Positions 35,061 through 48,982 of a stretch of 64,000 nt of DNA are shown here, in pieces. The DNA lies in the NCBI GenBank assembly GCA_965216325.1, contig OZ244160.1, positions 1,664,001 to 1,728,000 on the forward strand. Reading direction: 5' to 3'. Every line of letters starts with the position of its first letter. Position 1 is the first letter of the stretch. This DNA is from Coraliomargarita sp. GTDB taxonomy: Bacteria; Verrucomicrobiota; Verrucomicrobiia; Opitutales; Coraliomargaritaceae. Both the position numbers and the translations under genes were made by a program. The notes under the pieces are model-generated. The model was not told the DNA's origin and did not search any database. It saw only the letters and a program-made list of their open reading frames with translations.

Positions 35061-36029
35061 ATGGACCTACTCCTTCAGAATATACTCTCACCCGTCGTGC
35101 TCGCCTTCGTCCTCGGGATGTCGGCTCACTGGGTGAAGAGTGACCTAGAAATTCCGGATGCCATCTACCAGGCACTCTCGATCTATCTTCTCTTTGCAAT
35201 TGGTCTAAAAGGGGGTGTCGCCCTAGCTGAAACCCCACTGTCACAGCTGGTGGCACCTCTCGGGGTCACGCTACTGTTGGGGATCCTCACACCAATAACC
35301 GCCTTTTTCGCCCTCAAAGCAATCGGACGACTCGACCGCACCAACGCCGCTGCGACAGCCGCACACTACGGCTCAGTCTCCGCCGTAACCTTCCTCGCCG
35401 CAATCGAGGCCTCCAAAGTTGCCAACATCCCTGCCGACGGCTACATGCCTGCACTGGTTGCGGTGCTTGAGGTGCCCGGCATTGTTGTTGGACTCCTCTT
35501 TGCACGCCAAAAAAGCTCGAGTCGCGGTGGCATGAAAGAAGCTGTCCACGATGTCATCTTTGGCAAAAGCATTTTCCTCCTGATTGGCGGCATGGCCATC
35601 GGAGCGCTCTGCGGCCCCGTGAAAGTCGCCGCGGTCGCGCCCTTCTTCATTGATCCGTTCAAGGGCGTGCTCTGCCTCTTCCTCTTGGAACTCGGCATGG
35701 TCGCTGCCCGACGAATCGCGGACGTGCACAAGGCTGGCTGGCGTATCATCGTCCTCGGCTGCCTACTCCCACTCGTGCACGGCATGCTCGGCACCTTCGC
35801 AGGCACCCTAGCAGGCATGACCCCCGGAGGTGCGGCCGTGCTCGGCGCCATGACGGGTAGTGCCTCCTACATCGCGGCACCTGCCGCCGTCCGTATCGCA
35901 CTGCCTAAAGCCAGCCCTGGCATTTACCTGACCATGGCACTCGGCATCACCTTTCCATTCAATCTAGCGATCGGCATCCCACTCCTGCTTGCCTTCGCGA
36001 AATACTGCGCTCAAATGTTCGGCGCATAA
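35061..36029 (+). CDS. sbtA: Sodium-dependent bicarbonate transporter family permease (SbtA-like)
   Basis: KSDLEIP, YLLFAIGLKGG, AAHYGSVSAVTF, SASYIAAPAA, ITFPFN. Confidence 0.88.
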   Translation: MDLLLQNILSPVVLAFVLGMSAHWVKSDLEIPDAIYQALSIYLLFAIGLKGGVALAETPLSQLVAPLGVTLLLGILTPITAFFALKAIGRLDRTNAAATAAHYGSVSAVTFLAAIEASKVANIPADGYMPALVAVLEVPGIVVGLLFARQKSSSRGGMKEAVHDVIFGKSIFLLIGGMAIGALCGPVKVAAVAPFFIDPFKGVLCLFLLELGMVAARRIADVHKAGWRIIVLGCLLPLVHGMLGTFAGTLAGMTPGGAAVLGAMTGSASYIAAPAAVRIALPKASPGIYLTMALGITFPFNLAIGIPLLLAFAKYCAQMFGA

Positions 36030-36039
36030 AGATCCAGCT

Positions 36040-36345
36040 ATGAAAGTCACCTTAACCAAGATCACCATCATCACCGAAAGTCTGCTCACGGACCACATTC
36101 TTGAGCTGATCAAAGAGCATGGTGGAACTGGCCACACCCTGACCAAAGTCGAGGGCGAAGGCTCCAGAGGCACGCACGCCAGCGACTGGGAGGGCCGAAA
36201 CACCAAGATCGAGACCATCGTCACCGCCGAAGACGCGGACACCATTCTCGACCTACTCAACGAGCGCTATTTTGAAGACTACGCGATCATCGCATGGCTC
36301 TCCGAGGTGCAAGTGCTTCGTAGCAAAAAATTCGTGGGCCATTAA
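36040..36345 (+). CDS. sbtB: P-II-like regulator (SbtB-like)
   Basis: KITIITE, GHT..VEGEGSRG, IETIV, VQVLRSKKF; 10 bp downstream of sbtA. Confidence 0.8.
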   Translation: MKVTLTKITIITESLLTDHILELIKEHGGTGHTLTKVEGEGSRGTHASDWEGRNTKIETIVTAEDADTILDLLNERYFEDYAIIAWLSEVQVLRSKKFVGH

Positions 36346-36386
36346 GAACCCATTCGCTAAGCATCTAACTGCCCGTTAGAGATTTC

Positions 36387-36416
36387 AGGGTCGCCTTCAT
36401 CGAGGGCGGCCTTTTT
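36387..36416 (+). terminator. Terminator-like hairpin between sbtB and can
   Basis: AGGGTCGCCTTC-ATC-GAGGGCGGCCTTTTT, closely resembling the dapL terminator. Confidence 0.6.
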
Positions 36417-36425
36417 CATGATGCA

Positions 36426-37025
36426 ATGCCTACCCTGTCTAAGCTACTCCAGCGCAACCGCGAATGGGCGGCACGCATGAGCGAAGAAGACCCCACTTTC
36501 TTTGAAGAGCTGGAAAAGGAACAGCACCCAAATTATCTGTGGATCGGCTGCGCGGATAGCCGGGTCCCCAGCAGTCAGATCATGGGCTTAAAGCCGGGTG
36601 AAGTCTTCGTTCACCGCAATATTGCCAACATGGTGCTGCATACCGACTTTAACATGCTTTCGGTGCTTCAATATGCCGTCGACGTTTTGAAGGTGGAACA
36701 CGTGATTGTCGCAGGTCATTACGGCTGCGGCGGTGTCCGAGCGGCGATGAAAGATCAACACTTTGGACTGATCGACAATTGGCTACAAAACATTCAGGAC
36801 GTCGAAAGCATTCACCTTGAAGAACTTACTGCACTAGATGAGCAGGCACGCTTCGACCGCATGTGCGAGCTCAACGTTCTCCACCAAGTCGACAACCTAC
36901 GCCGCAGCCCAATCATTCAAGACGCGTGGGCGCGCGGTCAGCATGTGGAACTTCACAGTTGGGTCTACAACCTAAAAGACGGCCACCTGACCCCACTCCA
37001 AGACGTGATCAGCCACAACGACTAG
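36426..37025 (+). CDS. can: Beta-class carbonic anhydrase
   Basis: WIGCADSRV, FVHRNIAN, GHYGCGGV, CELNV. Confidence 0.95.
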   Translation: MPTLSKLLQRNREWAARMSEEDPTFFEELEKEQHPNYLWIGCADSRVPSSQIMGLKPGEVFVHRNIANMVLHTDFNMLSVLQYAVDVLKVEHVIVAGHYGCGGVRAAMKDQHFGLIDNWLQNIQDVESIHLEELTALDEQARFDRMCELNVLHQVDNLRRSPIIQDAWARGQHVELHSWVYNLKDGHLTPLQDVISHND

Positions 37026-37783: not shown

Positions 37784-38782
37784 ATGGACCCTCTCACACA
37801 GGCCACCCTCGGCGCAGCAGCCGCAGCCGTCGTCAGTCGCCCCAGCTCGGTGCGGCGCGCACTGCTGATTGGTGCCGTAGCAGGAGCCGCACCGGATCTG
37901 GATGTGTTTATTATATCCGGTGAGGATCCACTGCTGAACCTGCAGTATCACCGTCATTTCACCCATGCGTTGCTTTTTGCACCGGTGATCGGGCTGCTCG
38001 TTGCAGCACTGTTCAAAGGTCTGTTCTACCTGCGCAACTGGCCCTTCCGCGAACTCCTGCTGTTCGCAAATCTGGGCGCACTGTCCCACGGCCTACTGGA
38101 TGCCTGCACCAGCTATGGCACCATGCTCTACCTGCCCTTCAGTGGTCACCGCGAATCGTGGGATCTGATTTCGATCATCGATCCAATCTTCACCGTGCCG
38201 CTCGTGCTGCTTTGTCTCGCGGGCTTCATTGCCAGCAAGCCACGCCTCATCCGAATCGGCATGTGTTTGTGCCTGATGTATCTAAGCTTCGGATACATCC
38301 AACGTGAACGCGCCCGTAGCTATGCGCTAGAACTCGCAACTAGCCGCGGACTCTCCGTCGAGTCCGTCACAGCACGTCCCTCCTTTGCCAATACCATCCT
38401 CTGGCGCATCATCGTTCGCAGCAAAGACAGCTACACCGTCGACGCAGTGTGGCTGATGCCCTTCCAAGAGCCAACACTCTACAGCGGCGCAACCGTTCCC
38501 ATGCCAGATCTCGACAAGCTAGCACAAGACGGGAGCCAGCAAGCCGACGACATTGCCCGCTTTGATCACTTTTCACAGGGCTACCTCTACGAAGTGCCCG
38601 GCAAAGAGCACGTGCTCGGTGACTTGCGCTACGCACTCTTTCCCAATTCGGTCGAGCCCCTGTGGGGCATTCGGCTGAACCCTAAAACTCCAGACGCACA
38701 CATCGAAATGGTCCATTTTCGCGAGCCCTCCAAAGCGGCATTCACCAAACTCTGGGCGATGATCTGCGGTAAGGAATCGTAG
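37784..38782 (+). CDS. Membrane-bound metal-dependent hydrolase (YdjM/DUF457-like)
   Basis: MDPLTQATLG, PDLD, HRHFTH, HGLLDACTSYG, IIDP. Confidence 0.85.
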   Translation: MDPLTQATLGAAAAAVVSRPSSVRRALLIGAVAGAAPDLDVFIISGEDPLLNLQYHRHFTHALLFAPVIGLLVAALFKGLFYLRNWPFRELLLFANLGALSHGLLDACTSYGTMLYLPFSGHRESWDLISIIDPIFTVPLVLLCLAGFIASKPRLIRIGMCLCLMYLSFGYIQRERARSYALELATSRGLSVESVTARPSFANTILWRIIVRSKDSYTVDAVWLMPFQEPTLYSGATVPMPDLDKLAQDGSQQADDIARFDHFSQGYLYEVPGKEHVLGDLRYALFPNSVEPLWGIRLNPKTPDAHIEMVHFREPSKAAFTKLWAMICGKES

Positions 38783-38866
38783 CGCGCCACTTCAGCAAGC
38801 GCTCCTCCGCACAAAAGCCACCTCGCTACCTACAACCAAAAAGCGCTCGCTGAAGCAGCGCGCTAC
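38779..38866. repeat. Inverted GTAG-REP pair
   Basis: GTAGCGCGCCACTTCAGCAAGCGCT ... AGCGCTCGCTGAAGCAGCGCGCTAC. Confidence 0.65.
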
Positions 38867-38975
38867 GCCTCTCCAGACGCAGACACCTGTTTTTCTCAGA
38901 ATTGAGACTTGAATCAGGTCGGGGTTTTTCCAGCTTAGCGCATTCGGCTTTTACACAGCCCTGCAGTCGCCCCCA

Positions 38976-40940
38976 ATGCCACTTCCGAAATCGAAATCTC
39001 ATAACTCGCTCCGCCGCATGAAGGTAGGGATTAAGCGCTTCCTCAACACGGTTGACGAAATGCGCGCCTCGATTCAAGGCGATGACTATGAGGACGAGGA
39101 ATACGAAGAATACGAAGAATACGACGACGAATTCGAAGCATGCGACGATACAGAGGAAGCTGAAGACGAGGAGCTGCCGGAAGAAATTGTCGAGGACACC
39201 CGTCGCGAAGAAGAAGCCCTTGCCACCGAACAAGCGGAGCTAAACGGCTGGCGTCAGGAGCTCGGCATGCTCCTCAAAGAACGCGAGGAGCGCGGCGAGT
39301 ATTTCCGCAATTATTTCGCTGAGAGCCAGCAACGCTATCAGCGCATGCTGCAAAACGCGCGCGATCAGCTCGCCGGCATCGAATCACGTGGCGACGAGGC
39401 CACACCAGCACAAGCCCTCGATCATGAGCTCAACGCACCGGCCGAGCCGGAACCAGAGCCAGTGCCGGAACCAATCGACAATCCGGACATCGAGCTTTAC
39501 ACACGCCCGAGCCTGAGCTTGCTCGAAGCGGCCGACCTCAGCAAGACCGTGCTCATGGAGCCGGAAGCCCTGGAGGCGCAGAAGAATTCGTTGCAAGAGA
39601 CCATGGATAGCTTCGCAGTCGATGCCTACGTCTACGATGCCATTCTCGGGCCACGCATCACACAGTTCCGCGTGCAGCCCGGTATGGGCGTGCGCGTTGA
39701 ATCCATCGCCGGCCTGCAAAAGAACATCGCACTGGCACTGGCTACCACCAACATCCGCGTGCAGGCACCAATTCCTGGCGAACCCTTCGTGGGCATTGAA
39801 GTTGGCAACGCTAACTCCGTGCCGATCCACCTTCGCTCAATGCTCGAGTCCCGCGCCTGGCGCGAATCCGAGATGGAGATCCCGCTGGTGCTCGGCATGG
39901 ACATTCAGGGCAAGATCATGCTCGCCGACCTCGCCAAAGCTCCACACCTGCTAATCGCTGGCGCCACGGGCAGCGGTAAGTCCGTCTGTATGAGTAACCT
40001 CATCCTCAGCCTACTCTACAAGTTCCGCCCGGATGAACTGGAGTTGGTGCTGATTGACCCGAAGCGCGTTGAATTTGGACTCTTCAAAGAGATCCCGCAC
40101 CTAATTCACTCGGTGGTGACAGAGCCCAAACCGGCCGTGCAGATCCTGAAGTGGGTGGTCGCCGAAATGGAGCGCCGCTACCAAGTGCTGGCGGACAAAC
40201 AGGTGCGCAACCTCGCTGGTTACAACGACAAGGCCGAGGCCGAGGGCTTCAAGAAGATGCCGTATCAGGTGGTCATCATCGATGAGCTTGCCGACCTCAT
40301 GATGACGTCCAAGGGAGAGGCCGAAGCCGCCCTCGCCCGTATCGCCCAACTTTCCCGCGCAGTTGGCATCCACACCATCATTGCGACTCAGCGCCCAAGC
40401 GTGAACGTCCTGACCGGTGTGATTAAAGCCAACTATCCGACCCGCATTGCCTTCCAGGTATCCTCACAAGTCGACTCACGCACCATCCTCGACTGCAAGG
40501 GTGCTGAGAGCCTCCTCGGACAAGGCGACATGTTATTCAACCCGCCGGGCATCGCACGACTCATCCGTATCCAGAGCCCATTGGTGCATGACCACGAGAT
40601 ACGCAACGTCGTCGACAATCTCGCCGCCCAACGTCAGGCCGAGCACCGCGTCGACCTCAGCAGCATTCCAGCAAGCGGCAACGACCAGTCCGGCAGCCAA
40701 CTCGATATCGATGGCATTGAAGGCGAAGACGACGAAGCACTGCTGAAGAAGGCCCTGCTCACCGTCGCCGAAACCCAAAAGGCCAGCACCAGTTTCCTAC
40801 AACGTCGTCTGCGTATCGGTTACAACCGCGCGGCGCTCCTCATCGAAGAACTCGAAGACCGCATGTATATCGGGCCGCAAAACGGCTCCACCCCACGTGA
40901 GGTCTTCATCACACCGGAGGAAATCGAATGGGCCAAATAA
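38976..40940 (+). CDS. FtsK/SpoIIIE-family DNA translocase lacking the N-terminal transmembrane domain
   Basis: Alpha domain (GPRITQF, QAPIPGEPFVGIEV), Walker A AGATGSGKS, IDPK, Walker B IIDELADLMM, ATQRPS, DSRTILD, gamma domain STSFLQRRLRIGYNRAA. The first ~170 aa are charged and acidic with no hydrophobic helix. Confidence 0.92.
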   Translation: MPLPKSKSHNSLRRMKVGIKRFLNTVDEMRASIQGDDYEDEEYEEYEEYDDEFEACDDTEEAEDEELPEEIVEDTRREEEALATEQAELNGWRQELGMLLKEREERGEYFRNYFAESQQRYQRMLQNARDQLAGIESRGDEATPAQALDHELNAPAEPEPEPVPEPIDNPDIELYTRPSLSLLEAADLSKTVLMEPEALEAQKNSLQETMDSFAVDAYVYDAILGPRITQFRVQPGMGVRVESIAGLQKNIALALATTNIRVQAPIPGEPFVGIEVGNANSVPIHLRSMLESRAWRESEMEIPLVLGMDIQGKIMLADLAKAPHLLIAGATGSGKSVCMSNLILSLLYKFRPDELELVLIDPKRVEFGLFKEIPHLIHSVVTEPKPAVQILKWVVAEMERRYQVLADKQVRNLAGYNDKAEAEGFKKMPYQVVIIDELADLMMTSKGEAEAALARIAQLSRAVGIHTIIATQRPSVNVLTGVIKANYPTRIAFQVSSQVDSRTILDCKGAESLLGQGDMLFNPPGIARLIRIQSPLVHDHEIRNVVDNLAAQRQAEHRVDLSSIPASGNDQSGSQLDIDGIEGEDDEALLKKALLTVAETQKASTSFLQRRLRIGYNRAALLIEELEDRMYIGPQNGSTPREVFITPEEIEWAK

Positions 40941-42424
40941 AGACCTGCGACGACTTGATCGAACAGATCGAAGCACTTGGGATCGAGGGCACCGTGAAGG
41001 CCTATCGCAAGCCACCGCTGCACACGCGTATCCTGCGCGACCTTTACGAGCTCTACATCGACGTGCCCAAATACGTCGAGTTCCTCGCTCACTATCCGCT
41101 GATTCCATCCGACCTCGCAGAGCGCATCGCGCAAGAGATCGATCCCGAACTCGTCGGCATCGCACATGGCCTTGCAGGCAACCCGCGCAGTTCGCAACAG
41201 ACACTCAATCGCCTCACCAAGCACGAGAACGTCGACGTGCGTCTTGAGCTCGCAGCCAACCCGAACCTGACACCAAAGGAATTCCAAGCCATGGTGCAGG
41301 ATGAGTCGGCCTATGTACGCGCCGCGATTGCCAAGAATCCATCGCTGCCGAACTCCCTGCAATTCATCCTCGCCGATGATACTGAAGCGATCGTGCTAAT
41401 TGCGCTCAGCTCCCGCAAAACCTTGGACATGGATATCGCGGTCCAACTGGGCACGCACAGCGATCCACTCGTGCGCGCCGCAATCGTCAACCAGTGGTCG
41501 CAAGATCCGGAAGTGCTGCAGATGTGGGCGGACCTCGACGAACCGCACAACCAGCAGTTCCTCCTTCAGCGTAGCGGCAAACTCGAAGCTTCAGCCATCG
41601 AGGCGCTCAGCTATGCTCAGGATTCTGAAGTCCGCACCGTCGCACACGCGCAACAGAATCTGAGCGGCCCACTGATGCTCTGGCTCGCCGAGTCCGACTA
41701 CACAGAGGACCGTGTTGCGCTCGCGGAGCGCCCCAACTTGCCGAACAGCATTCAGCGCATTCTCGCACAAGACAGCTCGCCCAAAGTGCGCCGCCGCCTT
41801 GCTGCCAACTCGGACCTCGCGCCATCCCTAGCACTACACATCGCCACTTCAAGCGACTTACAAGCCTGCCGCGCACTGGCGAAGAACCCAGCAATCGACT
41901 TCGAGTGCCTGAGCGAACTCTGCCTACATTCAGACGACAACATCGCTCTACTCGTTGCTTACCGCGACGACCTCAGCGAGCAACACCTCGACCTGCTCAT
42001 CAACCATCGCCTCAGCAGCACAGTCGCGGAGCACCTGGCGTATCAGGATTTTGAATACAAAAATATTCAAGCTGACCCCGTCGCCGCACTAGCAGGTAGT
42101 GACGCACCAAGTTTACGTGTTTTCGCTGCGCGTTCCGCGCACGGCGAAGATTGGTGCTTCAAGCAACTCGCAAGCGACCCCGTCCACGCCGTCCGCTTTG
42201 CACTCGCTAAAAACTCACACGCGCCGGAATCCTGCCTCAAGCAGCTCATGGAAGATGCCGACCGCGGGATCGTTTTTGCCGCCGAAGAAACCTTGAATCG
42301 CCGCAACCGCATCACCGCATCCGAATCGAAGAACGATGAAGATGAATACGACGCGTATGACGAAGAGGAGACCTACGAACGCGGCAGCACGCTGAAACGG
42401 ATCCTTAACTTTTTCACTGAATAA
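40928..42424 (+). CDS. HEAT/LRV-like helical repeat protein
   Basis: Repeated units of the type D....VR..LA.NP.LP (VRLELAANPNL, VRAAIAKNPSL, VRRRLAANSDL, VRFALAKNSHA); overlaps the ftsK-like gene by 13 bp. Confidence 0.8.
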   Translation: MGQIKTCDDLIEQIEALGIEGTVKAYRKPPLHTRILRDLYELYIDVPKYVEFLAHYPLIPSDLAERIAQEIDPELVGIAHGLAGNPRSSQQTLNRLTKHENVDVRLELAANPNLTPKEFQAMVQDESAYVRAAIAKNPSLPNSLQFILADDTEAIVLIALSSRKTLDMDIAVQLGTHSDPLVRAAIVNQWSQDPEVLQMWADLDEPHNQQFLLQRSGKLEASAIEALSYAQDSEVRTVAHAQQNLSGPLMLWLAESDYTEDRVALAERPNLPNSIQRILAQDSSPKVRRRLAANSDLAPSLALHIATSSDLQACRALAKNPAIDFECLSELCLHSDDNIALLVAYRDDLSEQHLDLLINHRLSSTVAEHLAYQDFEYKNIQADPVAALAGSDAPSLRVFAARSAHGEDWCFKQLASDPVHAVRFALAKNSHAPESCLKQLMEDADRGIVFAAEETLNRRNRITASESKNDEDEYDAYDEEETYERGSTLKRILNFFTE

Positions 42425-42437
42425 CCACTTTCAACAA

Positions 42438-42462
42438 CGGGCGCGTCAAGTCGCGCCCCTAC
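42438..42462 (-). repeat. Single GTAG-REP inside the ftsK-like operon
   Basis: Reverse complement GTAGGGGCGCGACTTGACGCGCCCG matches 37645-37669. Confidence 0.8.
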
Positions 42463-42481
42463 AACTTACAACGCACCTATC

Positions 42482-42889
42482 ATGGCTAAGAAAAATGCAA
42501 AACTGATACCGCTGACCTTGCAGGAGATCATTCTCCGAGGTGATGCGGAGACCATCCGCCAAGCACTCGAAGCACGCACTCAAATCGACACCCTGCTGGA
42601 AGAGCGCGAAGCGGCATATCGCCGCATCAGCGAACTCGAAGAACAAGTCGAAGGCATCGTCGGCGAAGAAGGCGTCTTCCCATTCCCGGAGCCACCGGTT
42701 CCCGTGGCAGCCTTCGACACCAAGGCGGCGGCCAAGAAGAAGCCAGCGCCAAAGCCAGTCGAGGAAGCTCCAGTAGAAGCTGAAGCAGAAGTAGCAACTA
42801 AGGAAGCCCCTGTCGCGGACAGTGACGAAAACGCTCCAGCTACTGAAGCCGAAACCGACGAAGCTACAGAGGAAAACAAAGACGCGTAA
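42482..42889 (+). CDS. Hypothetical coiled-coil protein with Lys patch and acidic tail
   Basis: LLEEREAAYRRISELEEQVEGIVG...FPFPEPP; paralogous to the next gene. Confidence 0.75.
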   Translation: MAKKNAKLIPLTLQEIILRGDAETIRQALEARTQIDTLLEEREAAYRRISELEEQVEGIVGEEGVFPFPEPPVPVAAFDTKAAAKKKPAPKPVEEAPVEAEAEVATKEAPVADSDENAPATEAETDEATEENKDA

Positions 42890-42975
42890 TTCAGTTTCAG
42901 GAGCTGACGTTTCCAGAGCCAAGCAACGGGCAACTGAAAACCAGCAACTGAAAACTGCACGCGCAGCGTGCCCCC

Positions 42976-43386
42976 ATGTCGATCTCTACCGAAGAGCTCA
43001 TTGCCATCAACGGCCTTCTCATAGAACGAGAAGTGGCCTTTGCGCGCGTGGGCAGTATCGAGCAATCGATCAACGAGCTCCTCGGAGGCGACTACCCCTT
43101 CCCCGCGCCGGAGGCGATCCCGCCTTCCACCCAAAAGCGCAAGACCAAGAAAAAAGCTGCCAGGGCCGCAAAACCAAAAGGCCCGCCGAAGCTACGCAGA
43201 TTACGCAGCCCCGAGGTCGCTTACCGTATACACACTATCGAGCAGGGCCAACCACAACAGCGCGAAGCAACCGACCTCAAGCCGCTCGAAGCAATCATCA
43301 AAGGCACCATTACAGGCATACGCCTGAGCAAAGTCGAAACCCTCAACAGCAGCGGTGAAGCAGTTGAGGTAATCTATCAAGGGTAG
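42976..43386 (+). CDS. Hypothetical coiled-coil protein with basic linker
   Basis: LLIEREVAFARVGSIEQSINELLG..YPFPAP then KRKTKKKAARAAKPK; paralogous to the previous gene. Confidence 0.75.
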   Translation: MSISTEELIAINGLLIEREVAFARVGSIEQSINELLGGDYPFPAPEAIPPSTQKRKTKKKAARAAKPKGPPKLRRLRSPEVAYRIHTIEQGQPQQREATDLKPLEAIIKGTITGIRLSKVETLNSSGEAVEVIYQG

Positions 43387-43466
43387 CGCAGGCGCGTCTC
43401 GCGCCGCACTACAGAGCACACGTCAGGCGAACAAACCGTCCGCGCCGCGAAACGCGGCAGCGCTAC
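43383..43466. repeat. Inverted GTAGCGCA-type REP pair
   Basis: GTAGCGCAGGCGCGTCTCGCGCCGC ... GCGCCGCGAAACGCGGCAGCGCTAC; the left arm is identical to the copy at 56109. Confidence 0.8.
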
Positions 43467-43472
43467 CTCGAT

Positions 43473-44060
43473 CTAAATTGTCGACCTTGCGTCAGGATTT
43501 GCGGCCTTGAGAGCTTCCGCTTCGGCTTGCCTTTGAGCTTCCCTAGCTTTCCGTCTACTCATATCAGCTGCCGCCTCCGCTTCCCACCGAGCTTGGTCAG
43601 CTTTAAGTTTTTCGGCATTATATTTTTCCCACGCAGCTCTACTTGCATTGGGGTCCGTATATTTCTCTCCATTTGGCCCCGTATAGACTGGTGCTTTCTC
43701 TCGAGTGAGTGTGATTGATGAGGACTCCCCCGAATTACTGGATGTGCTAGAAATACTATTCCCATTAGTTTGGGCATAAGCAATCGAACCATAGGGATCA
43801 GGCGTTCCGCTATAGTTTATAGTCGGCTGGTAAACTGGTGTTTCTTCATATTGGTAGGCAGCAGTCGCTGCCGTTGAAGAGACATCGTCAAGATCGACGC
43901 CCTCGGCAGTTTCAATTACTGTTACCAACGCTGCCACTGGCAATGACAGTGGCAATAGCGCATACTCTGTATTATTATTGAGCTCACCATCATCGCCCCC
44001 CATTAGCTCTTTTGCTTGAGGCGTGCATGAGCAAATTGTTAGGCATATCGGAATAAGCAC
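43473..44060 (-). CDS. Hypothetical putative lipoprotein
   Basis: Lipobox-like LTICSC, Ser-rich linker, helical C-terminus; start uncertain. Confidence 0.55.
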   Translation of the reverse strand: MLIPICLTICSCTPQAKELMGGDDGELNNNTEYALLPLSLPVAALVTVIETAEGVDLDDVSSTAATAAYQYEETPVYQPTINYSGTPDPYGSIAYAQTNGNSISSTSSNSGESSSITLTREKAPVYTGPNGEKYTDPNASRAAWEKYNAEKLKADQARWEAEAAADMSRRKAREAQRQAEAEALKAANPDARSTI

Positions 44061-44151
44061 TAGCTTGTGATATACCCTTTTCTCTTCTTTTTCTTTGAGT
44101 TCATCGTTTTTATTAATCTCCGATTAATTGGGTTAACTAAGCGGCTGATCT

Positions 44152-44535
44152 CTATTTAACTTTCGTCCAAGTTTTCCCACTCGCGTATACGATCCCCGTC
44201 ATTACTAAGCTCGTATTAGTCACTTTGTAGGACAAGGTGTCGGCTGGATACCGCTTCTTTTCATCAAGATTGATACGTGGGAACTTCTGGCGAGTGATCG
44301 CTAAGGTCAGCTGGCCACCAGAGGTTGACCACTCATAAAAAGTAAGATCTTTGCTACTACTTTTTTGCTCACTGAGTATGGCAGTTCCATTAGCTTGGAA
44401 CTCAATGGTTGCTTGCCCAGATTGATATGAACCGTTGTCGATTTCCCAAGTTCCCAATAGAGATTTGTCTAGCGCAGCAACTGAAAGATGCAGGCATGAA
44501 AACAAACAAAGGGTAATGATAAGTAGCTTTTTCAT
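44152..44535 (-). CDS. Exported lipocalin-like (DUF5640-like) small beta protein
   Basis: Clear signal peptide MKKLLIITLCLFSCLHLSVAA, then LLGTW...IEFQANGT. Confidence 0.6.
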   Translation of the reverse strand: MKKLLIITLCLFSCLHLSVAALDKSLLGTWEIDNGSYQSGQATIEFQANGTAILSEQKSSSKDLTFYEWSTSGGQLTLAITRQKFPRINLDEKKRYPADTLSYKVTNTSLVMTGIVYASGKTWTKVK

Positions 44536-44679
44536 AGTTTTTTGTAGTAGGTAGTTTGATATGGTAAGTTGTGCCTTAGCCTGTGAATAGGGCTTGCTAC
44601 AGCCTTGGTTGTAAGAATTTCTTCATGAGTGAGGATAGATGTCCTTACCGATGAATTCGGCAGTTGATTCTGCCATCTC

Positions 44680-46389
44680 TTAGTTCTCTCTGACCTGATA
44701 AAATTGCTTCGCACGTAGCCCCTGTGGGTCTGCTACTGGATGATCCAGACCATCCCCGGCAAGCTGCGCAATACAGATCCAAGGGCCCGCCGGAGAATCA
44801 CTGCTCCAAACTGAATATAGCGTCTCTACTTCGGTGTTAAAAGTGAGTGTGGGTGTAGTTCCATTTTCAATATCGATGACCGAGAATTTGGAACTACCAA
44901 TCGTTTGATCTGTAGTCACGGCAAACTGCCCAAACACGTCAGTTTGTAGACTCAACCATTCGCCACCATAGGTAAAATCGGAGACTTCATTCCAAGAACT
45001 TCCTCCATCGCTAGAGCGCCACACTTTTAAATGATCCTCGCTAAAACCGGCACCAAGCTGAAACGAAAGTGTCGCAGTGGAATTTTCTAAATCAGTCGAA
45101 ACTTCATATGCAAGTAATGCCAGCTCACCATTAATCGGCCCAGTCGCAGTGAGTTCGGTTGAATTAATCGAAGCCACTCCGGCATCGCTAGAGAAACTAA
45201 TATCTAATGAATCGCCTCCCTCGATAGACGTTGCAGATATCGATGCGGATTTCAGACCGCTATCTTCTTCGATCGCAGTTGAAAAGCTCGACCGGAAACT
45301 AGGCCTCGACCAAGACCAACGCCTCCAAGGGGGGCGCCTCCAGCGATAACGCTGACCACTCAAATCCTGATCACTCACGGGAGCAGAAACTACGACTGGA
45401 GCGGGCACAGTAAACTCTCCTAAACTCCAAGTGCCACCCTGCGCGCTATAACGACTTGAACCTATAATAAGAAGCTGCCCTACAGAAATCGGAGTATAGG
45501 TGCCTGCTTCCAGATTTGGCTCAGCAATGAAATGAACCTCTCCATCAACTATAAATGACCGTCCAGCCGTCACCATATTCTCCTGTCCCACATGTAGATT
45601 GAGCGTATCGACAACCCGAACATCTCCATCTGTAGTTAGCGTAGCACCATTCTTTAACGTGGTCGTGCCTCTAACATAAACATCTGCATCAGAAGTAATC
45701 GCGCCAAAATCAGTTGCTTCAACCTCGCCTCTCAACTCCAAAGAGGAGGCCTTAAGGCTGGATCCTGCACCCGAGACTCGAATCGAACTCCCCTCGAACA
45801 ACTCCAAACGATTATTCGACTCGAAACCGCCACCCTCTTCGATTTTCAGTTTCCCTCGGCCTGTCCGATAGGCTCCAACCAAAGTAGCCTGACCGCCAAC
45901 TGTCATCATAGAACCACTACCCGTAATAAGGACTTCGCCGTCACCATCGCCAGATCCATAGACGCCGCCGATGTGAACTAGGGGCAATAAGTCCGCGAAA
46001 CTGCCACTTTGCGTAGTGACGTGACCACCATTTGTAATTCTAAGCACCCCAGAGCCATTGCCATGGCCAAGATGAAAGTCGCCGCGATTGAAATATGCAG
46101 AGCCACTACCATCGACATGAAATGTGCTATTTGCATTGAAGCCGATGCTTGTCCCTGCCCGCCAACCATCAATGCTTTGCCAGTCTATCATGTTCACCGT
46201 GCAACCATTCTCAATTTTCAGAGAACTCACCGGACCATGAAGATTCAATCGAGGAGTTAAGCCCCCAATAGTCCAAGCCGTGACATCTGCGGGCGGCTGA
46301 GGGATTACATTTCCAGTTGCAGTAAAGTCCGCAAGAACAGTTCCTCCGAAACTGAGTGCAATGATTAGAGATGCTAGAGCTACACGCAT
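44680..46389 (-). CDS. Secreted beta-helix-like protein with T5SS/PEP-CTERM-associated-type repeats
   Basis: Signal peptide; repeats of G.G...(V/I)(D/T/S)G.GS and G.L.I..GG; C-terminal domain ending QFYQVREN. Confidence 0.65.
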   Translation of the reverse strand: MRVALASLIIALSFGGTVLADFTATGNVIPQPPADVTAWTIGGLTPRLNLHGPVSSLKIENGCTVNMIDWQSIDGWRAGTSIGFNANSTFHVDGSGSAYFNRGDFHLGHGNGSGVLRITNGGHVTTQSGSFADLLPLVHIGGVYGSGDGDGEVLITGSGSMMTVGGQATLVGAYRTGRGKLKIEEGGGFESNNRLELFEGSSIRVSGAGSSLKASSLELRGEVEATDFGAITSDADVYVRGTTTLKNGATLTTDGDVRVVDTLNLHVGQENMVTAGRSFIVDGEVHFIAEPNLEAGTYTPISVGQLLIIGSSRYSAQGGTWSLGEFTVPAPVVVSAPVSDQDLSGQRYRWRRPPWRRWSWSRPSFRSSFSTAIEEDSGLKSASISATSIEGGDSLDISFSSDAGVASINSTELTATGPINGELALLAYEVSTDLENSTATLSFQLGAGFSEDHLKVWRSSDGGSSWNEVSDFTYGGEWLSLQTDVFGQFAVTTDQTIGSSKFSVIDIENGTTPTLTFNTEVETLYSVWSSDSPAGPWICIAQLAGDGLDHPVADPQGLRAKQFYQVREN

Positions 46390-46528
46390 AGACTTGGAAG
46401 TAGGTAGTTTAATTCATAATATTAGCACAAAACGAGCCTACTCGTCTTGGATAATCCTGACTTTTCGACTACAGAGGACTCAATAGCGCGCTTAGGCGTG
46501 TCAGAGAATTTACCAAGGCTACAAAATG

Positions 46529-46599
46529 GGAGGCAGGACACTCCTGTCCTGTTACTTCCAGACTCAACAGAATGTTGCGAACAAGAGTGCCCACACTCC
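46529..46599. repeat. GGAG-type REP pair
   Basis: GGAGGCAGGACACTCCTGTCCTG ... GAACAAGAGTGCCCACACTCC; related to 11780-11851. Confidence 0.6.
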
Positions 46600-46603
46600 G
46601 CTT

Positions 46604-47566
46604 CTATATCATGCGCTTGTAATCGCTAGGAGTGAGCCCCGTCCATTGCTTGAAGACTCTAGATAAGTGAGCCTGGTCATAAAAACCACACAAATAGGCA
46701 ACCTCGCTAATGCCGGAAGGCGTGTGTAGCAGCTCTCTCGCCTTCGACACGCGCATGCGCGTGATATAGCGATGCGGAGAGGAATGCGTCACAGCTTTGA
46801 AGCAACGTGAGAAATAGCCAGGCGACATACCCGCAAGGCTCGCCAATTCTTCGATTTGGATCGGCTTATGCACTCTGGACCACACGTATTCCTGAATTCG
46901 CGACATAGTGGATTCCGAAAGACCTCGACTCGGCGATTTCGGCAGCTTTCGATCGGATACATCAAGACCTCTAACTAGCAAAGTCGCTGCGATTTCGAGG
47001 TAGTCATACAAGGCCAAATCCGGCAATTTGTCACCATATTGAAGCGCCGCCTCTAGCTGCAATACATGCTGGCACAACTCCGGTAATAGCATACCCATTT
47101 GCGAGTCGCCCAAATACAGATTCTCGACCTTCTCGCTGGCCGTAGTATCCAATAGAAATGAGTCGGGTATCAAGATGTGGATACAACCCCTAGCTCCGGT
47201 GAACTCCCACTCGGTCTCAGTGAAGGGGGCAATGTAAACCAAATTATTACGGTGCAACTTGCCCCCCAAGCAGGACTCCTGCTTGCCGTGTTGAATCAGC
47301 ATCTGTTCTGGCCCGTCGTGTATTTGCACCATGAGCCAATGGTGCGGAATCGCCGGAAGCGTCATCTCTGAGGGAGGACAGTTCCTGTAATACTCGATCT
47401 GCACTTTGGCACAGCTAAGCTTCACCTCACGGGAACGATTCAGGTCAGCAGTAATATTTTCAATACGCTGATCAAGGGCACAATACATTGAGGACGAGGA
47501 CCGTTTGGGATATTTCGAATCAGTAAGGCAATAAACGCGCGAGTCAGGCACGCCTATATTTAGCAT
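46604..47566 (-). CDS. AraC family transcriptional regulator
   Basis: ELASLAGMSPGYFSRCFK, ISEVAYLCGFYDQAHLSRVFKQWTGLTPSDY; start uncertain. Confidence 0.9.
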   Translation of the reverse strand: MLNIGVPDSRVYCLTDSKYPKRSSSSMYCALDQRIENITADLNRSREVKLSCAKVQIEYYRNCPPSEMTLPAIPHHWLMVQIHDGPEQMLIQHGKQESCLGGKLHRNNLVYIAPFTETEWEFTGARGCIHILIPDSFLLDTTASEKVENLYLGDSQMGMLLPELCQHVLQLEAALQYGDKLPDLALYDYLEIAATLLVRGLDVSDRKLPKSPSRGLSESTMSRIQEYVWSRVHKPIQIEELASLAGMSPGYFSRCFKAVTHSSPHRYITRMRVSKARELLHTPSGISEVAYLCGFYDQAHLSRVFKQWTGLTPSDYKRMI

Positions 47567-47761
47567 GTAGAATGCCTACACAGAAAAATATTCCCAAGAA
47601 ATATCAAATACTTCGCCTTGAATTTGAGATTTGGGGCTCAGCAACGGCGAAACCCTCAACAGCAGCGGCGAAGCTGTTGTGCTGTTTAAATGGCTGGGGT
47701 CCAGGCTTTAGCCGGTTCAAAGTCATTTCAAACCGCCTCAAGGCGGAACCCCAACTTTCAA

Positions 47762-48982
47762 CTACCGACGACGGCGGCCGAATTTGCTGCTACCGGAATT
47801 ACGGCGACGACGCTTTGGCTTGGCCTCTTCCGCATCGCGAATCATCGGCTCATGAAAATAGTTAAAGCCGTCCAATTTGCGCTGCGGGATTTGCGCATCA
47901 ATGAACTTCTCGATTGCATCGAGTTTACTCTGCTCGTCGGGAGCAAGAATCGTTGCGGCATCTCCTTCACGCTGTGCACGTCCAGTGCGGCCAATACGGT
48001 GCACATAGTCTTCAGCGTGTTCCGGCACATCGTAGTTGATGACGTGTGTTACATTGGCGATGTCCAAGCCACGCGATGCAATATCCGTTGCCACCAAAAT
48101 CTTAATCTCGCCATTCTTGAAGCGCTCCAAGGCTTTCGTGCGCGCCTTCTGCGGGAGATTCGAGTGCATGGCCGCACAACTGTATTTTCGCTCTTGTAGC
48201 CAACGCGTAATTCGGTCCGCTCCTACCTTCATACGGCAGAAGATGATCATGCTATCGACTTCCATGCTCTCAATGAGCGCAACGAGGAGATCAAACTTCT
48301 GCATTGCGCCAACCGGATACACCTCGTGCTTCACGGTCTCGGCCGGAGAAATCTTAATGCTGATCGCGACCTCGACCGGATCCTTCAGGCTGTGAGCAAT
48401 GAGTCGCTTGATCTCTTCAGAGACGGTTGCAGAAAAGAGCAGCGTTTGGCGCTTCTTGTTGCTGCAGTAGCGGATGATACGCTTCACGTCGTCGATGAAG
48501 CCCATGTCGAGCATGCGGTCGACCTCGTCGAGAATGAGTAACTCAATGCTGCGCAAATCGATGGTCTTTTGCTGCACGTGGTCGAGTAGTCGACCTGGAG
48601 TGGCAATCACTACATCCGCGCCCGCTTCGAGTTCTTGACGCTGCTTGCCGTAACCGACACCACCATGGATCAACGCACACTTCGGTTCGGAGCCCTTGCC
48701 ATATTTCTTGAATTGATCCTTCACCTGAGCAGCGAGCTCACGCGTTGGGCCCAGCACAAGGCAGCGTGGTGCCGCTCCCTTTTTGTGACCTCCGAGAATA
48801 TGTAGCGCGGGGAGCGCAAAGGCAGCAGTCTTGCCGGTGCCGGTTTGCGCAGAGCCAATCACATCGCGGCCCTCGATAATGTGGGGGATTGCACCCGCTT
48901 GAATAGGAGTCGGCTCGGTGTAACCGGATTCTTCGATTGCAGCGAGAATAGAGGGCGCAAGGCCCAGTTCTTTAAATGTCAT
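47762..48982 (-). CDS. DEAD-box RNA helicase (RhlE-like)
   Basis: Q motif PTPIQ, AQTGTGKT, PTRELA, TPGRL, DEVD, SAT, HRIGRTGRA; start at MTFKELGL. Confidence 0.93.
   Translation of the reverse strand: MTFKELGLAPSILAAIEESGYTEPTPIQAGAIPHIIEGRDVIGSAQTGTGKTAAFALPALHILGGHKKGAAPRCLVLGPTRELAAQVKDQFKKYGKGSEPKCALIHGGVGYGKQRQELEAGADVVIATPGRLLDHVQQKTIDLRSIELLILDEVDRMLDMGFIDDVKRIIRYCSNKKRQTLLFSATVSEEIKRLIAHSLKDPVEVAISIKISPAETVKHEVYPVGAMQKFDLLVALIESMEVDSMIIFCRMKVGADRITRWLQERKYSCAAMHSNLPQKARTKALERFKNGEIKILVATDIASRGLDIANVTHVINYDVPEHAEDYVHRIGRTGRAQREGDAATILAPDEQSKLDAIEKFIDAQIPQRKLDGFNYFHEPMIRDAEEAKPKRRRRNSGSSKFGRRRR

Follow-up and report, generated by a model that had tools for sequence, protein, structure and literature searches.

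Why some bacteria keep two chromosomal DNA translocases is posed as an open question in the accessible text of a review (PMC5357621). A locus of Coraliomargarita sp. (Verrucomicrobiota; GenBank assembly GCA_965216325.1) raises it in a specific form: what might a genome with a canonical FtsK use a second, shorter ftsK gene for, and why do three further genes accompany it? The locus lies in a window of 64,000 nucleotides (contig OZ244160.1, positions 1,664,001 to 1,728,000 of the forward strand), which is the whole stretch that was analysed and the reference for the positions below. Four same-strand open reading frames (ORFs) fill 38976–43386 (+). We refer to their products as FtsK2, the anchor-less FtsK; LRV, a solenoid protein; and sA and sB, two small paralogous proteins. 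LRV, sA and sB together are called the triad. These genes form an FtsK-family translocase system whose scaffold and two small partners are novel. The cassette is conserved in part of the Planctomycetes–Verrucomicrobia–Chlamydiae (PVC) group and looks like an undescribed accessory DNA-translocation machine. Our preferred answer, to which we assign a probability of roughly 0.6, is that the products of all four genes make up a single machine, an accessory and scaffold-tethered FtsK-family translocase of double-stranded DNA (dsDNA) that is the second in the genome and works on the chromosome beside canonical FtsK.

A second FtsK without a membrane anchor

The source genome, a single contig of 3.06 Mb, has two strong FtsK_SpoIIIE matches. 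One belongs to a canonical FtsK of 877 amino acids (aa) with four N-terminal hydrophobic helices, encoded ∼68 kb downstream of the cassette. The other is FtsK2, publicly annotated as ‘DNA translocase FtsK’, which shares 46% identity with the canonical protein over the alpha, beta and gamma domains (residues 175–645). Canonical FtsK is defined by, and attached to the divisome through, an N-terminal domain of four transmembrane (TM) helices. FtsK2 has no Pfam match to this four-helix domain, and a Kyte-Doolittle scan with a hydrophobic-helix mark of at least 1.6 over 19 residues found no such helix in FtsK2, LRV, sA or sB (maxima 1.24, 1.31, 0.59 and 1.12, respectively). The same division separates all 46 canonical FtsKs that we fetched, each with 3–5 N-terminal hydrophobic helices, from the 32 short FtsKs, which have none. 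Because the four-helix membrane domain is absent, FtsK2 falls into a soluble subclass and not with canonical FtsK; because a canonical four-helix FtsK is encoded elsewhere in the genome, FtsK2 is an extra, anchor-less paralogue. A frameshifted TM segment upstream of ftsK2, raised beforehand as a possible objection, was ruled out: the frame is open for just 21 codons before the ATG (a 675-aa frame), and ydjM, which lies upstream, is not kept together with the cassette.

The motor of FtsK2 is complete. Pfam identifies FtsK_alpha (PF17854, E 2.1e-25), FtsK_SpoIIIE (PF01580, E 4.5e-61) and FtsK_gamma (PF09397, E 8.6e-25), so that the alpha domain, the RecA-like beta motor with its Walker A and B motifs and the gamma winged-helix domain of FtsK/SpoIIIE translocases are all present. 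An alignment of 29 FtsK2 sequences shows no variation in Walker A (GATGSGKS) or Walker B (IIDELAD). The gamma-helix sequence LQRRLRIGYNRAA is identical in FtsK2 and the canonical FtsK of the same genome. We take this stretch, from what is known of E. coli FtsK, to be the DNA-reading helix; if it is, its presence in both paralogues suggests that FtsK2 would read the same chromosomal polarity motifs. Given the intact motifs and the shared helix, FtsK2 may carry out ATP-driven, sequence-directed dsDNA translocation.

The second gene begins inside the first. The stop of ftsK2 and the start of the LRV gene overlap by 13 bp (40928–40940), an overlap also retained in relatives. LRV matches PF01816 with 41.2 bits (cut-off 21.6) and PF25591, with weaker DUF2336, LRV_2 and HEAT matches. 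Among PDB sequences its sole relative is the Azotobacter vinelandii LRV protein (1LRV, E 1.4e-9). Its AlphaFold2 (AF2) model, with a mean predicted local distance difference test score (pLDDT) of 89.9, consists of ∼33 short helices that form a solenoid, and both hallmarks of LRV repeat proteins, tandem repeats and a right-handed alpha-solenoid, are found. By fold, the closest Foldseek match is the HEAT scaffold of the PP2A A subunit (E 3e-7); since the TM-scores are low (0.25–0.33), this likeness is architectural only. Two further matches of LRV, to SpbR (NCBIfam; 25.8 bits, cut-off 400) and to DUF2336, were set aside as repeat-level likeness only.

sA and sB are paralogues by a shared helix and the FPFP/YPFP motif after it (hhalign probability 95.8%, E 7e-9, 50 columns). 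The N-terminal 80 residues of sA, a helix and then FPFPEPP, are nearly invariant (91% identity within the family, where LRV has ∼55%); a Lys/Pro patch comes next, and the tail is variable and in many cases acidic. In sB, a helix (aa 5–36) and the YPFP motif are followed by a KRK-rich, disordered linker and, at the C-terminus, a beta-beta-alpha-beta-beta domain (aa 80–135; AF2 model pLDDT 79.5). Neither protein has a match in Pfam or NCBIfam (E ≤ 0.1), PADLOC or PHROGs. Against PDB sequences, the sA profile found none at E ≤ 1 and the sB profile two at E > 0.5, which we take as chance. Foldseek likewise matched no PDB fold to sB at E ≤ 1e-3, fibronectin type III coming nearest with E 0.09, and the best Z in a wide VIA-align search was 5.3, inside the stated noise of the tool. 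A search of 1.84 billion proteins yielded just 89 cluster representatives at E ≤ 1e-3, which makes this a small family; sB-like proteins stand at the weak end of the list. The two nearest sA clusters in the protein atlas are from Verrucomicrobiota and Lentisphaerota. Fusions of sA to longer proteins numbered 0 among 7995 scored candidates, which the tool itself rates as weak evidence.

The first-pass annotation of the window, made from its letters alone, had described four co-oriented genes, the first two overlapping by 13 bp, for a complete alpha–beta–gamma FtsK without a hydrophobic N-terminal helix, a helical-repeat protein and two small paralogues. Every part of this description stands, and the separate TM-anchored ftsK that it advised looking for exists.

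Conservation and ancestry of the cassette

The cassette recurs in an orderly way. Strong matches to LRV (E ≤ 1e-145) occur in seven of 40 relatives, from five genera of the family, with one more weak, repeat-level match (E 8.4e-4); the order FtsK2–LRV–sA–sB is retained at all seven of the related loci. Across the phylum, an sA profile detected 43 of 401 genomes, in 28 of 184 genera. These are the genome of the window, 5/25 from its own family, 9/56 from other families of its order, 0/52 from other orders of its class, and 28/267 from other classes (group sizes were counted by hand from the FtsK genome table). To examine gene order we combined the seven family loci with 32 loci fetched phylum-wide. 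At all 39, sA and sB are adjacent and the LRV gene lies directly 5′ of sA. A tblastn search had given 37 LRV genes; the other two were recognised at L054, with E 7e-129 by a profile built without that locus, and at L059, where only the LRV C-terminus is present at the contig end (E 7.5e-12).

An FtsK without TM helices abuts the triad at 29 of the 38 loci that are long enough for judging. It is directly upstream and co-oriented at 25 of these (at one, L072, only its last 61 residues are on the contig), co-oriented with a YhcG-type nuclease gene inserted at one, and adjacent but divergent at three. At nine further loci FtsK is outside the fetched stretch, and the stretch of one more is too short. 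Apart from the incomplete copy at L072, the linked FtsKs were seen in full; these 28 proteins have 588–677 aa, and none has an N-terminal TM helix. For the unlinked triads, we checked five genomes and found a short TM-less FtsK elsewhere in three (G391, G320 and G317): two are 13 kb and 71 kb off on the same contig, and the third is on another contig. The flanks of the cassette are unrelated housekeeping genes that vary by lineage. The arrangement is far beyond chance, since many genera share this order of genes. The gene order that the first-pass annotation proposed to examine is thus conserved for the triad throughout and for FtsK in most places, in several classes; FtsK adjacency does not hold at every locus.

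The sA gene also travels with a second FtsK. At least two FtsK matches (E ≤ 1e-20) were counted by hand in 38 of 43 sA-positive genomes and in 37 of 358 sA-negative genomes, related genomes not being independent in this comparison.

To place FtsK2 among other FtsKs we built a tree from 78 alpha–beta–gamma regions, 32 of them short and 46 canonical (the divergent rows L115–L117 were excluded). Support is given by the Shimodaira–Hasegawa-like approximate likelihood-ratio test (SH-aLRT). All 32 short FtsKs are in one group of 33 rows (SH-aLRT 91), and the 34 canonical FtsKs of the class of the window form a separate clade (SH-aLRT 100). FtsK2 is therefore not a recent copy of the local ftsK. Within the short group, 18 sequences from the order of the window (SH-aLRT 99) are sister to five from another class-level family, f54 (SH-aLRT 99). 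This topology would fit a short form that arose once and a cassette that moved afterwards.

Predicted assembly, with its genome setting

What might the partners do for an FtsK that has no anchor? We modelled LRV, sA (residues 1–85), sB and FtsK2 (residues 1–175) as a four-chain complex from our own alignments, with FtsK2 as the scored partner. The complex score was 0.76 in each of three runs, and 0.07 in the best of three controls. The mark used for this score is reached by 116 of 157 solved complexes and by two of 215 mismatched pairs, a calibration that is only rough here, given our own alignments and four chains. The three runs agree in at least 59% of their contacts, and the pLDDT of the partner is at least 56. 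In the model, FtsK2 residues 78–132 lie in a groove formed by LRV residues 120–300. The interface helix is the best-conserved N-terminal element of FtsK2; W92 is conserved in 22, R93 in 21, R103 in 28 and R106 in 20 of 29 sequences. On the LRV side, the conserved acidic residues D167, D/E169, E195, D202, E225 and E249 face the conserved FtsK2 arginines. Docking of the N-terminal FtsK2 helix in the groove of LRV is supported by this model. It resembles the way in which HEAT scaffolds bind helices of their partners on the inner face.

Both proteins may also reach the membrane peripherally. The first 175 residues of FtsK2 comprise a short basic amphipathic stretch, an acidic run and the long helix. 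A hydrophobic moment of at least 0.6 occurs in 23/29 FtsK2 N-termini (for example MKVGIKRFLNTV and SNLKRFLRRLG) and in 0/29 FtsK2 C-termini. The public gene call for FtsK2 begins at Met15 (640 aa; window 38976–39017), as do the calls for several relatives at the equivalent Met (633–637 aa); this start would put the amphipathic helix at the extreme N-terminus. In the LRV model, a long helix (446–472) is followed by a disordered acidic linker (pLDDT <50 at 474–485) and a terminal helix (487–497). The same hydrophobic moment is reached by 26/38 LRV C-termini, of types such as TLKRILNFFTE, LLKQLKRLFWQ and ILKRLIRKV, compared with 3/32 sB C-termini. Short terminal amphipathic helices after a flexible linker are likewise found in MinD and FtsA, and the LRV tails presumably resemble that of MinD; in FtsK2 the helix is N-terminal. 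By this likeness, each of the two helices could bind membrane.

Together, these features suggest how the machine may be built. FtsK2 would have lost the four-helix membrane domain, and its conserved helix would dock in the concave acidic groove of a HEAT-like LRV solenoid. This solenoid, the product of the translationally coupled next gene, would act as a scaffold that stands in for the lost domain. Through the amphipathic helices at the FtsK2 N-terminus and the LRV C-terminus, the complex would probably attach to the membrane peripherally and reversibly, in the manner of MinD and FtsA. It would be completed by sA and sB, which both have a single long helix, a Pro/Phe motif and a lysine-rich stretch. 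They probably form a coiled-coil pair through their paralogous helices and connect the motor on its scaffold with DNA or with some conserved hub of the cell, which their basic segments would touch. As to its task, we infer that the machine probably clears or orients chromosomal DNA at division, handles chromosome dimers or remodels the nucleoid.

A bolder version of this proposal is possible, though we hold it only tentatively. The cassette would then encode a self-contained DNA pump, in which the HEAT-like solenoid replaces the FtsK TM domain, six scaffolded N-terminal helices together with the terminal amphipathic helices tether the hexamer reversibly to the membrane, a heterodimer of the lineage-specific, lysine-tailed coiled-coil proteins sA and sB loads or aims it on DNA, and the genes have spread as one cassette between Lentisphaeria-like lineages and Opitutales.

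Several observations weigh against reading the four genes as one machine. ftsK2 is not beside the triad at 9/38 loci, and the triad is therefore the tighter unit. Two genomes of one genus, G225 and G111, have a canonical FtsK and a very divergent FtsK-like gene, and no typical short FtsK. Many small-genome relatives have no cassette, which is therefore accessory and dispensable for basic division. The tree is an unrooted quick-search tree that included no approximately unbiased (AU) test, and one canonical FtsK (L107) is in the same unresolved polytomy as the short FtsKs. The complex score is a confidence of the model, not a measurement, and the complex model reported no contact of FtsK2(1–175) with sA or sB. 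The amphipathic signal is moderate: just 16/38 LRV tails and 13/29 FtsK2 heads reach ≤0.05 against their own shuffles, and 12/38 LRV proteins have no amphipathic C-terminal tail. Finally, a pattern scan did not find the operon bracketed by promoter or terminator consensus sequences.

On balance, the proposal in the first-pass annotation of a second, non-canonical DNA-translocation machine with dedicated partners gains support from the second FtsK, the gene order, the separation of short and canonical FtsKs in the tree and the LRV docking model. The partners did not turn out to be characterised, unrelated families with no predicted interaction; sA and sB match no family, and docking to LRV is modelled. 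Of the contacts between the FtsK N-terminus and each partner that it proposed to model, the one with LRV is supported by the complex model, and none with the two small proteins was reported. The coordinates of the cassette and its features are collected in Table 1.

Table 1. Features of the FtsK2–LRV–sA–sB cassette, in positions of the window
Feature	Position	Strand	Basis and remarks
Weak terminator-like hairpin	38906–38920	+	Pattern scan; between ydjM and the cassette; weak hint only
ftsK2	38976–40940	+	654 aa; Pfam alpha, beta and gamma domains; no TM helix
FtsK2 N-terminal amphipathic helix (∼aa 12–30), then acidic stretch	39009–39065	+	Best 11-mer hydrophobic moment 0.77
FtsK2 conserved N-terminal helix (aa 78–132), predicted LRV-docking element	39207–39371	+	Complex model and alignment of 29
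FtsK2 alpha (aa 178–278), beta motor (286–476) and gamma winged helix-turn-helix (585–646)	39507–40913	+	Pfam
LRV-repeat alpha-solenoid scaffold gene	40928–42424	+	498 aa; PF01816, E 1.5e-10
LRV groove predicted to hold the FtsK2 helix (residues 120–300)	41285–41827	+	Complex model
LRV C-terminal amphipathic helix (aa 487–497)	42386–42418	+	AF2 model; follows the disordered acidic linker
sA	42482–42889	+	135 aa; alignment-based anatomy
sB	42976–43386	+	136 aa; sA paralogue by hhalign

The surroundings of the cassette are of mixed character. Its upstream neighbour, a YdjM membrane gene at 37784–38782, is retained at two of seven related loci, and farther upstream (35061–37025) are an SbtA-type bicarbonate transporter (PF05982, E 1.1e-110) and then a beta-carbonic anhydrase (PF00484, E 3.3e-54). 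The pattern scan found no sigma-70-like promoter in 38600–43700 and nine terminator-like sites in the scanned region, no excess over shuffles (6.3 ± 2.9). G+C-rich inverted repeats lie in every cassette spacer and after sB, and GCAACTGAAAAC is tandemly duplicated between sA and sB; these repeats and the duplicate, located at 42441–42460, 42929–42955, 42957–42971 and 43386–43460, could be RNA processing or stability elements. Downstream, 44001–48000 has a G+C content of 0.47–0.50, compared with ∼0.56 elsewhere, and may be a small island. The ORFs of this low-G+C stretch, on the minus strand at 43473–44060 (195 aa), 44152–44535 (127 aa) and 44680–46389 (569 aa), have no significant Pfam match (a weak DUF5640 match only) and no counterpart beside the cassette in relatives.

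On a larger scale, the cumulative GC skew of the genome is atypical: it rises from 0 to ∼1.08 Mb, falls to ∼1.80 Mb and rises to the end, never returning to zero. dnaA is at 0.867 Mb, and canonical ftsK (1.772 Mb) and the cassette (1.703 Mb) are both within 100 kb of the turning point at 1.80 Mb. The two are often on one contig, 9–100 kb apart (G013, ∼10 kb; G127, 9 kb; G014; G387; G319; and G000, the genome of the window), and may share a chromosomal neighbourhood. The divergent FtsK-like genes of G225 (L110/L115) and G111 (L111/L116) encode 584–588 aa with 26% identity to FtsK2 and lie on the same strand, within ∼2 kb after canonical ftsK.

Two individual loci stand out. The YhcG-type PDDEXK nuclease gene (PF06250, E 4.6e-56, with DUF1016_N) lies at L073:4188–5525, between the short ftsK and the LRV gene, and is seen in one lineage. 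One sA-bearing contig (L094, 75% identity) is in a metagenome-assembled genome labelled Yoonia, an alphaproteobacterium; a binning error seems more likely than a real case outside the phylum.

Alternative explanations and known systems

The alternative that survives best starts from the constancy of the triad. LRV, sA and sB could work as a complex of their own, perhaps as a nucleoid-associated or cytoskeletal adaptor, with ftsK2 often adjacent through shared regulation or ancestry. The triad is found at 39/39 loci, including the nine with FtsK outside the fetched stretch and the three with a divergent FtsK, and residues 1–80 of sA are better conserved than FtsK2 or LRV, which suggests a partner other than these two. 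However, a short FtsK is present in the genome in the three unlinked cases where it was found, the stop of ftsK2 overlaps the start of the LRV gene, and the modelled contact, scoring 0.76 against 0.07 for controls, has a conserved and charge-complementary interface. We consider a triad independent of FtsK2 unlikely.

It is less likely again that the cassette serves anti-phage or anti-plasmid defence with an FtsK/HerA-type motor, as SspFGH or HerA-containing systems do. The FtsK2 motor matches the PADLOC models for SspH (E 1.2e-69) and mad8 (E 5.8e-34), but these matches cover the generic motor only (residues 141–548, aligned with the C-terminal end of a model of 1766 positions). No PADLOC model matches LRV, sA or sB, so the system-specific partners that mark SspFGH or HerA systems were not found, and Pfam identified no nuclease or other effector domain in the cassette. 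FtsK2 further has a full gamma domain with the helix sequence of the housekeeping FtsK. The patchy distribution, the variable flanks and the low-G+C ORFs of no assigned function directly downstream would fit defence genes; however, the neighbours are housekeeping genes and not defence islands, and the downstream ORFs are not conserved with the cassette.

Movement of DNA between cells or across the envelope, by TraB-like conjugative dsDNA transfer, export or uptake, is more doubtful still. Actinomycete plasmid transfer is driven by FtsK-family motors with a C-terminal winged helix-turn-helix domain, and a transfer of the cassette itself between classes of the phylum is suggested by the short FtsKs from the order of the window, which nest beside those of f54. 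FtsK2 does match plasmid_TraB in NCBIfam (E 1.8e-15), but the score of 56 bits is far under the cut-off of 800, and the gamma helix is identical to that of the chromosomal FtsK. No integrase, replication or relaxase genes were found beside the cassette in the window and the loci with scanned flanks, and no sA relative was found in viral contigs (0/80 candidate stretches). A phage origin was rejected separately: the viral-contig scan with the sA profile confirmed none of these 80, and the PHROGs matches are to generic FtsK/terminase ATPases for FtsK2, with none for the partners.

A type-VII-like secretion system, in which an FtsK-like ATPase exports two small tandem helical paralogues as EssC/EccC do with EsxA/EsxB, is very unlikely. 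Two small helical paralogues do follow an FtsK-family ATPase in tandem, and the motor matches EssC (E 3.8e-33) and EccC (E 1.4e-28) in NCBIfam, but the scores are far below the cut-offs (EssC, 114 bits against 778; EccCa, 100 against 509). FtsK2 also combines just one ATPase domain with a gamma domain for DNA binding and lacks TM and FHA regions, and sA and sB have long disordered charged tails and no WXG100 or other Pfam match.

An accessory, scaffolded translocase thus remains our preferred reading, and it has partial parallels among described systems. In the accessible text of PMC5357621, B. subtilis SftA is a soluble, septum-associated FtsK-like translocase that works beside SpoIIIE. Like SftA, FtsK2 is a second FtsK-family translocase without a TM domain beside a membrane-anchored paralogue; unlike SftA, for which that account gives no dedicated operon partners, the FtsK2 motor has three conserved partner genes. 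The comparison is one of architecture, the tree having held no Firmicutes or SftA sequence. The short FtsKs group in it with FtsKs of Verrucomicrobiota and Lentisphaerota, a placement that argues for the anchor having been lost independently.

A second parallel is Streptomyces SffA, described in the accessible text of PMC4255298 as a lineage-restricted second FtsK-like protein with an adjacent small gene, SmeA, both products being septum-targeted. FtsK2 likewise is a second, lineage-restricted FtsK-like protein encoded beside small partner genes. On the same account, however, SmeA is a membrane protein, whereas LRV, sA and sB have no hydrophobic helix, and SffA resembles FtsK only weakly, whereas the alpha, beta and gamma domains of FtsK2 are complete. 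The partner set of FtsK2, a large solenoid and two paralogues, differs from both: neither SftA nor SffA–SmeA, as these texts describe them, includes an LRV scaffold or sA/sB-like proteins. With canonical FtsK of the E. coli type, FtsK2 shares the alpha, beta and gamma domains, the Walker motifs and the gamma-helix sequence, and differs in the missing N-terminal four-TM domain. A search of the full-text literature, which does not cover subscription journals, found neither a description of the FtsK2–LRV–sA–sB cassette nor a link between an LRV protein and FtsK.

The placement and control of FtsK-family motors are known for a few model bacteria only. Division machinery in the PVC group is divergent, and a 2025 study of verrucomicrobial division genes treats a single FtsK, with no soluble paralogue mentioned in its accessible text (PMC12283558). 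In the cassette described here, the anchor of a complete FtsK motor appears to have been exchanged for a dedicated soluble scaffold and two proteins of no known family. Its occurrence in at least 28 genera and two or more PVC classes provides a handle on anchor-independent recruitment of a DNA pump. The proposal is directly testable because the cultured type strain Coraliomargarita akajimensis DSM 45221 has a short FtsK. The cassette also gives a context to three protein families now annotated as hypothetical and bears on chromosome handling in the PVC group. If the self-contained pump envisaged in the bolder version were real, these PVC bacteria would have a second, regulatable chromosome-clearing system without counterpart in model organisms.

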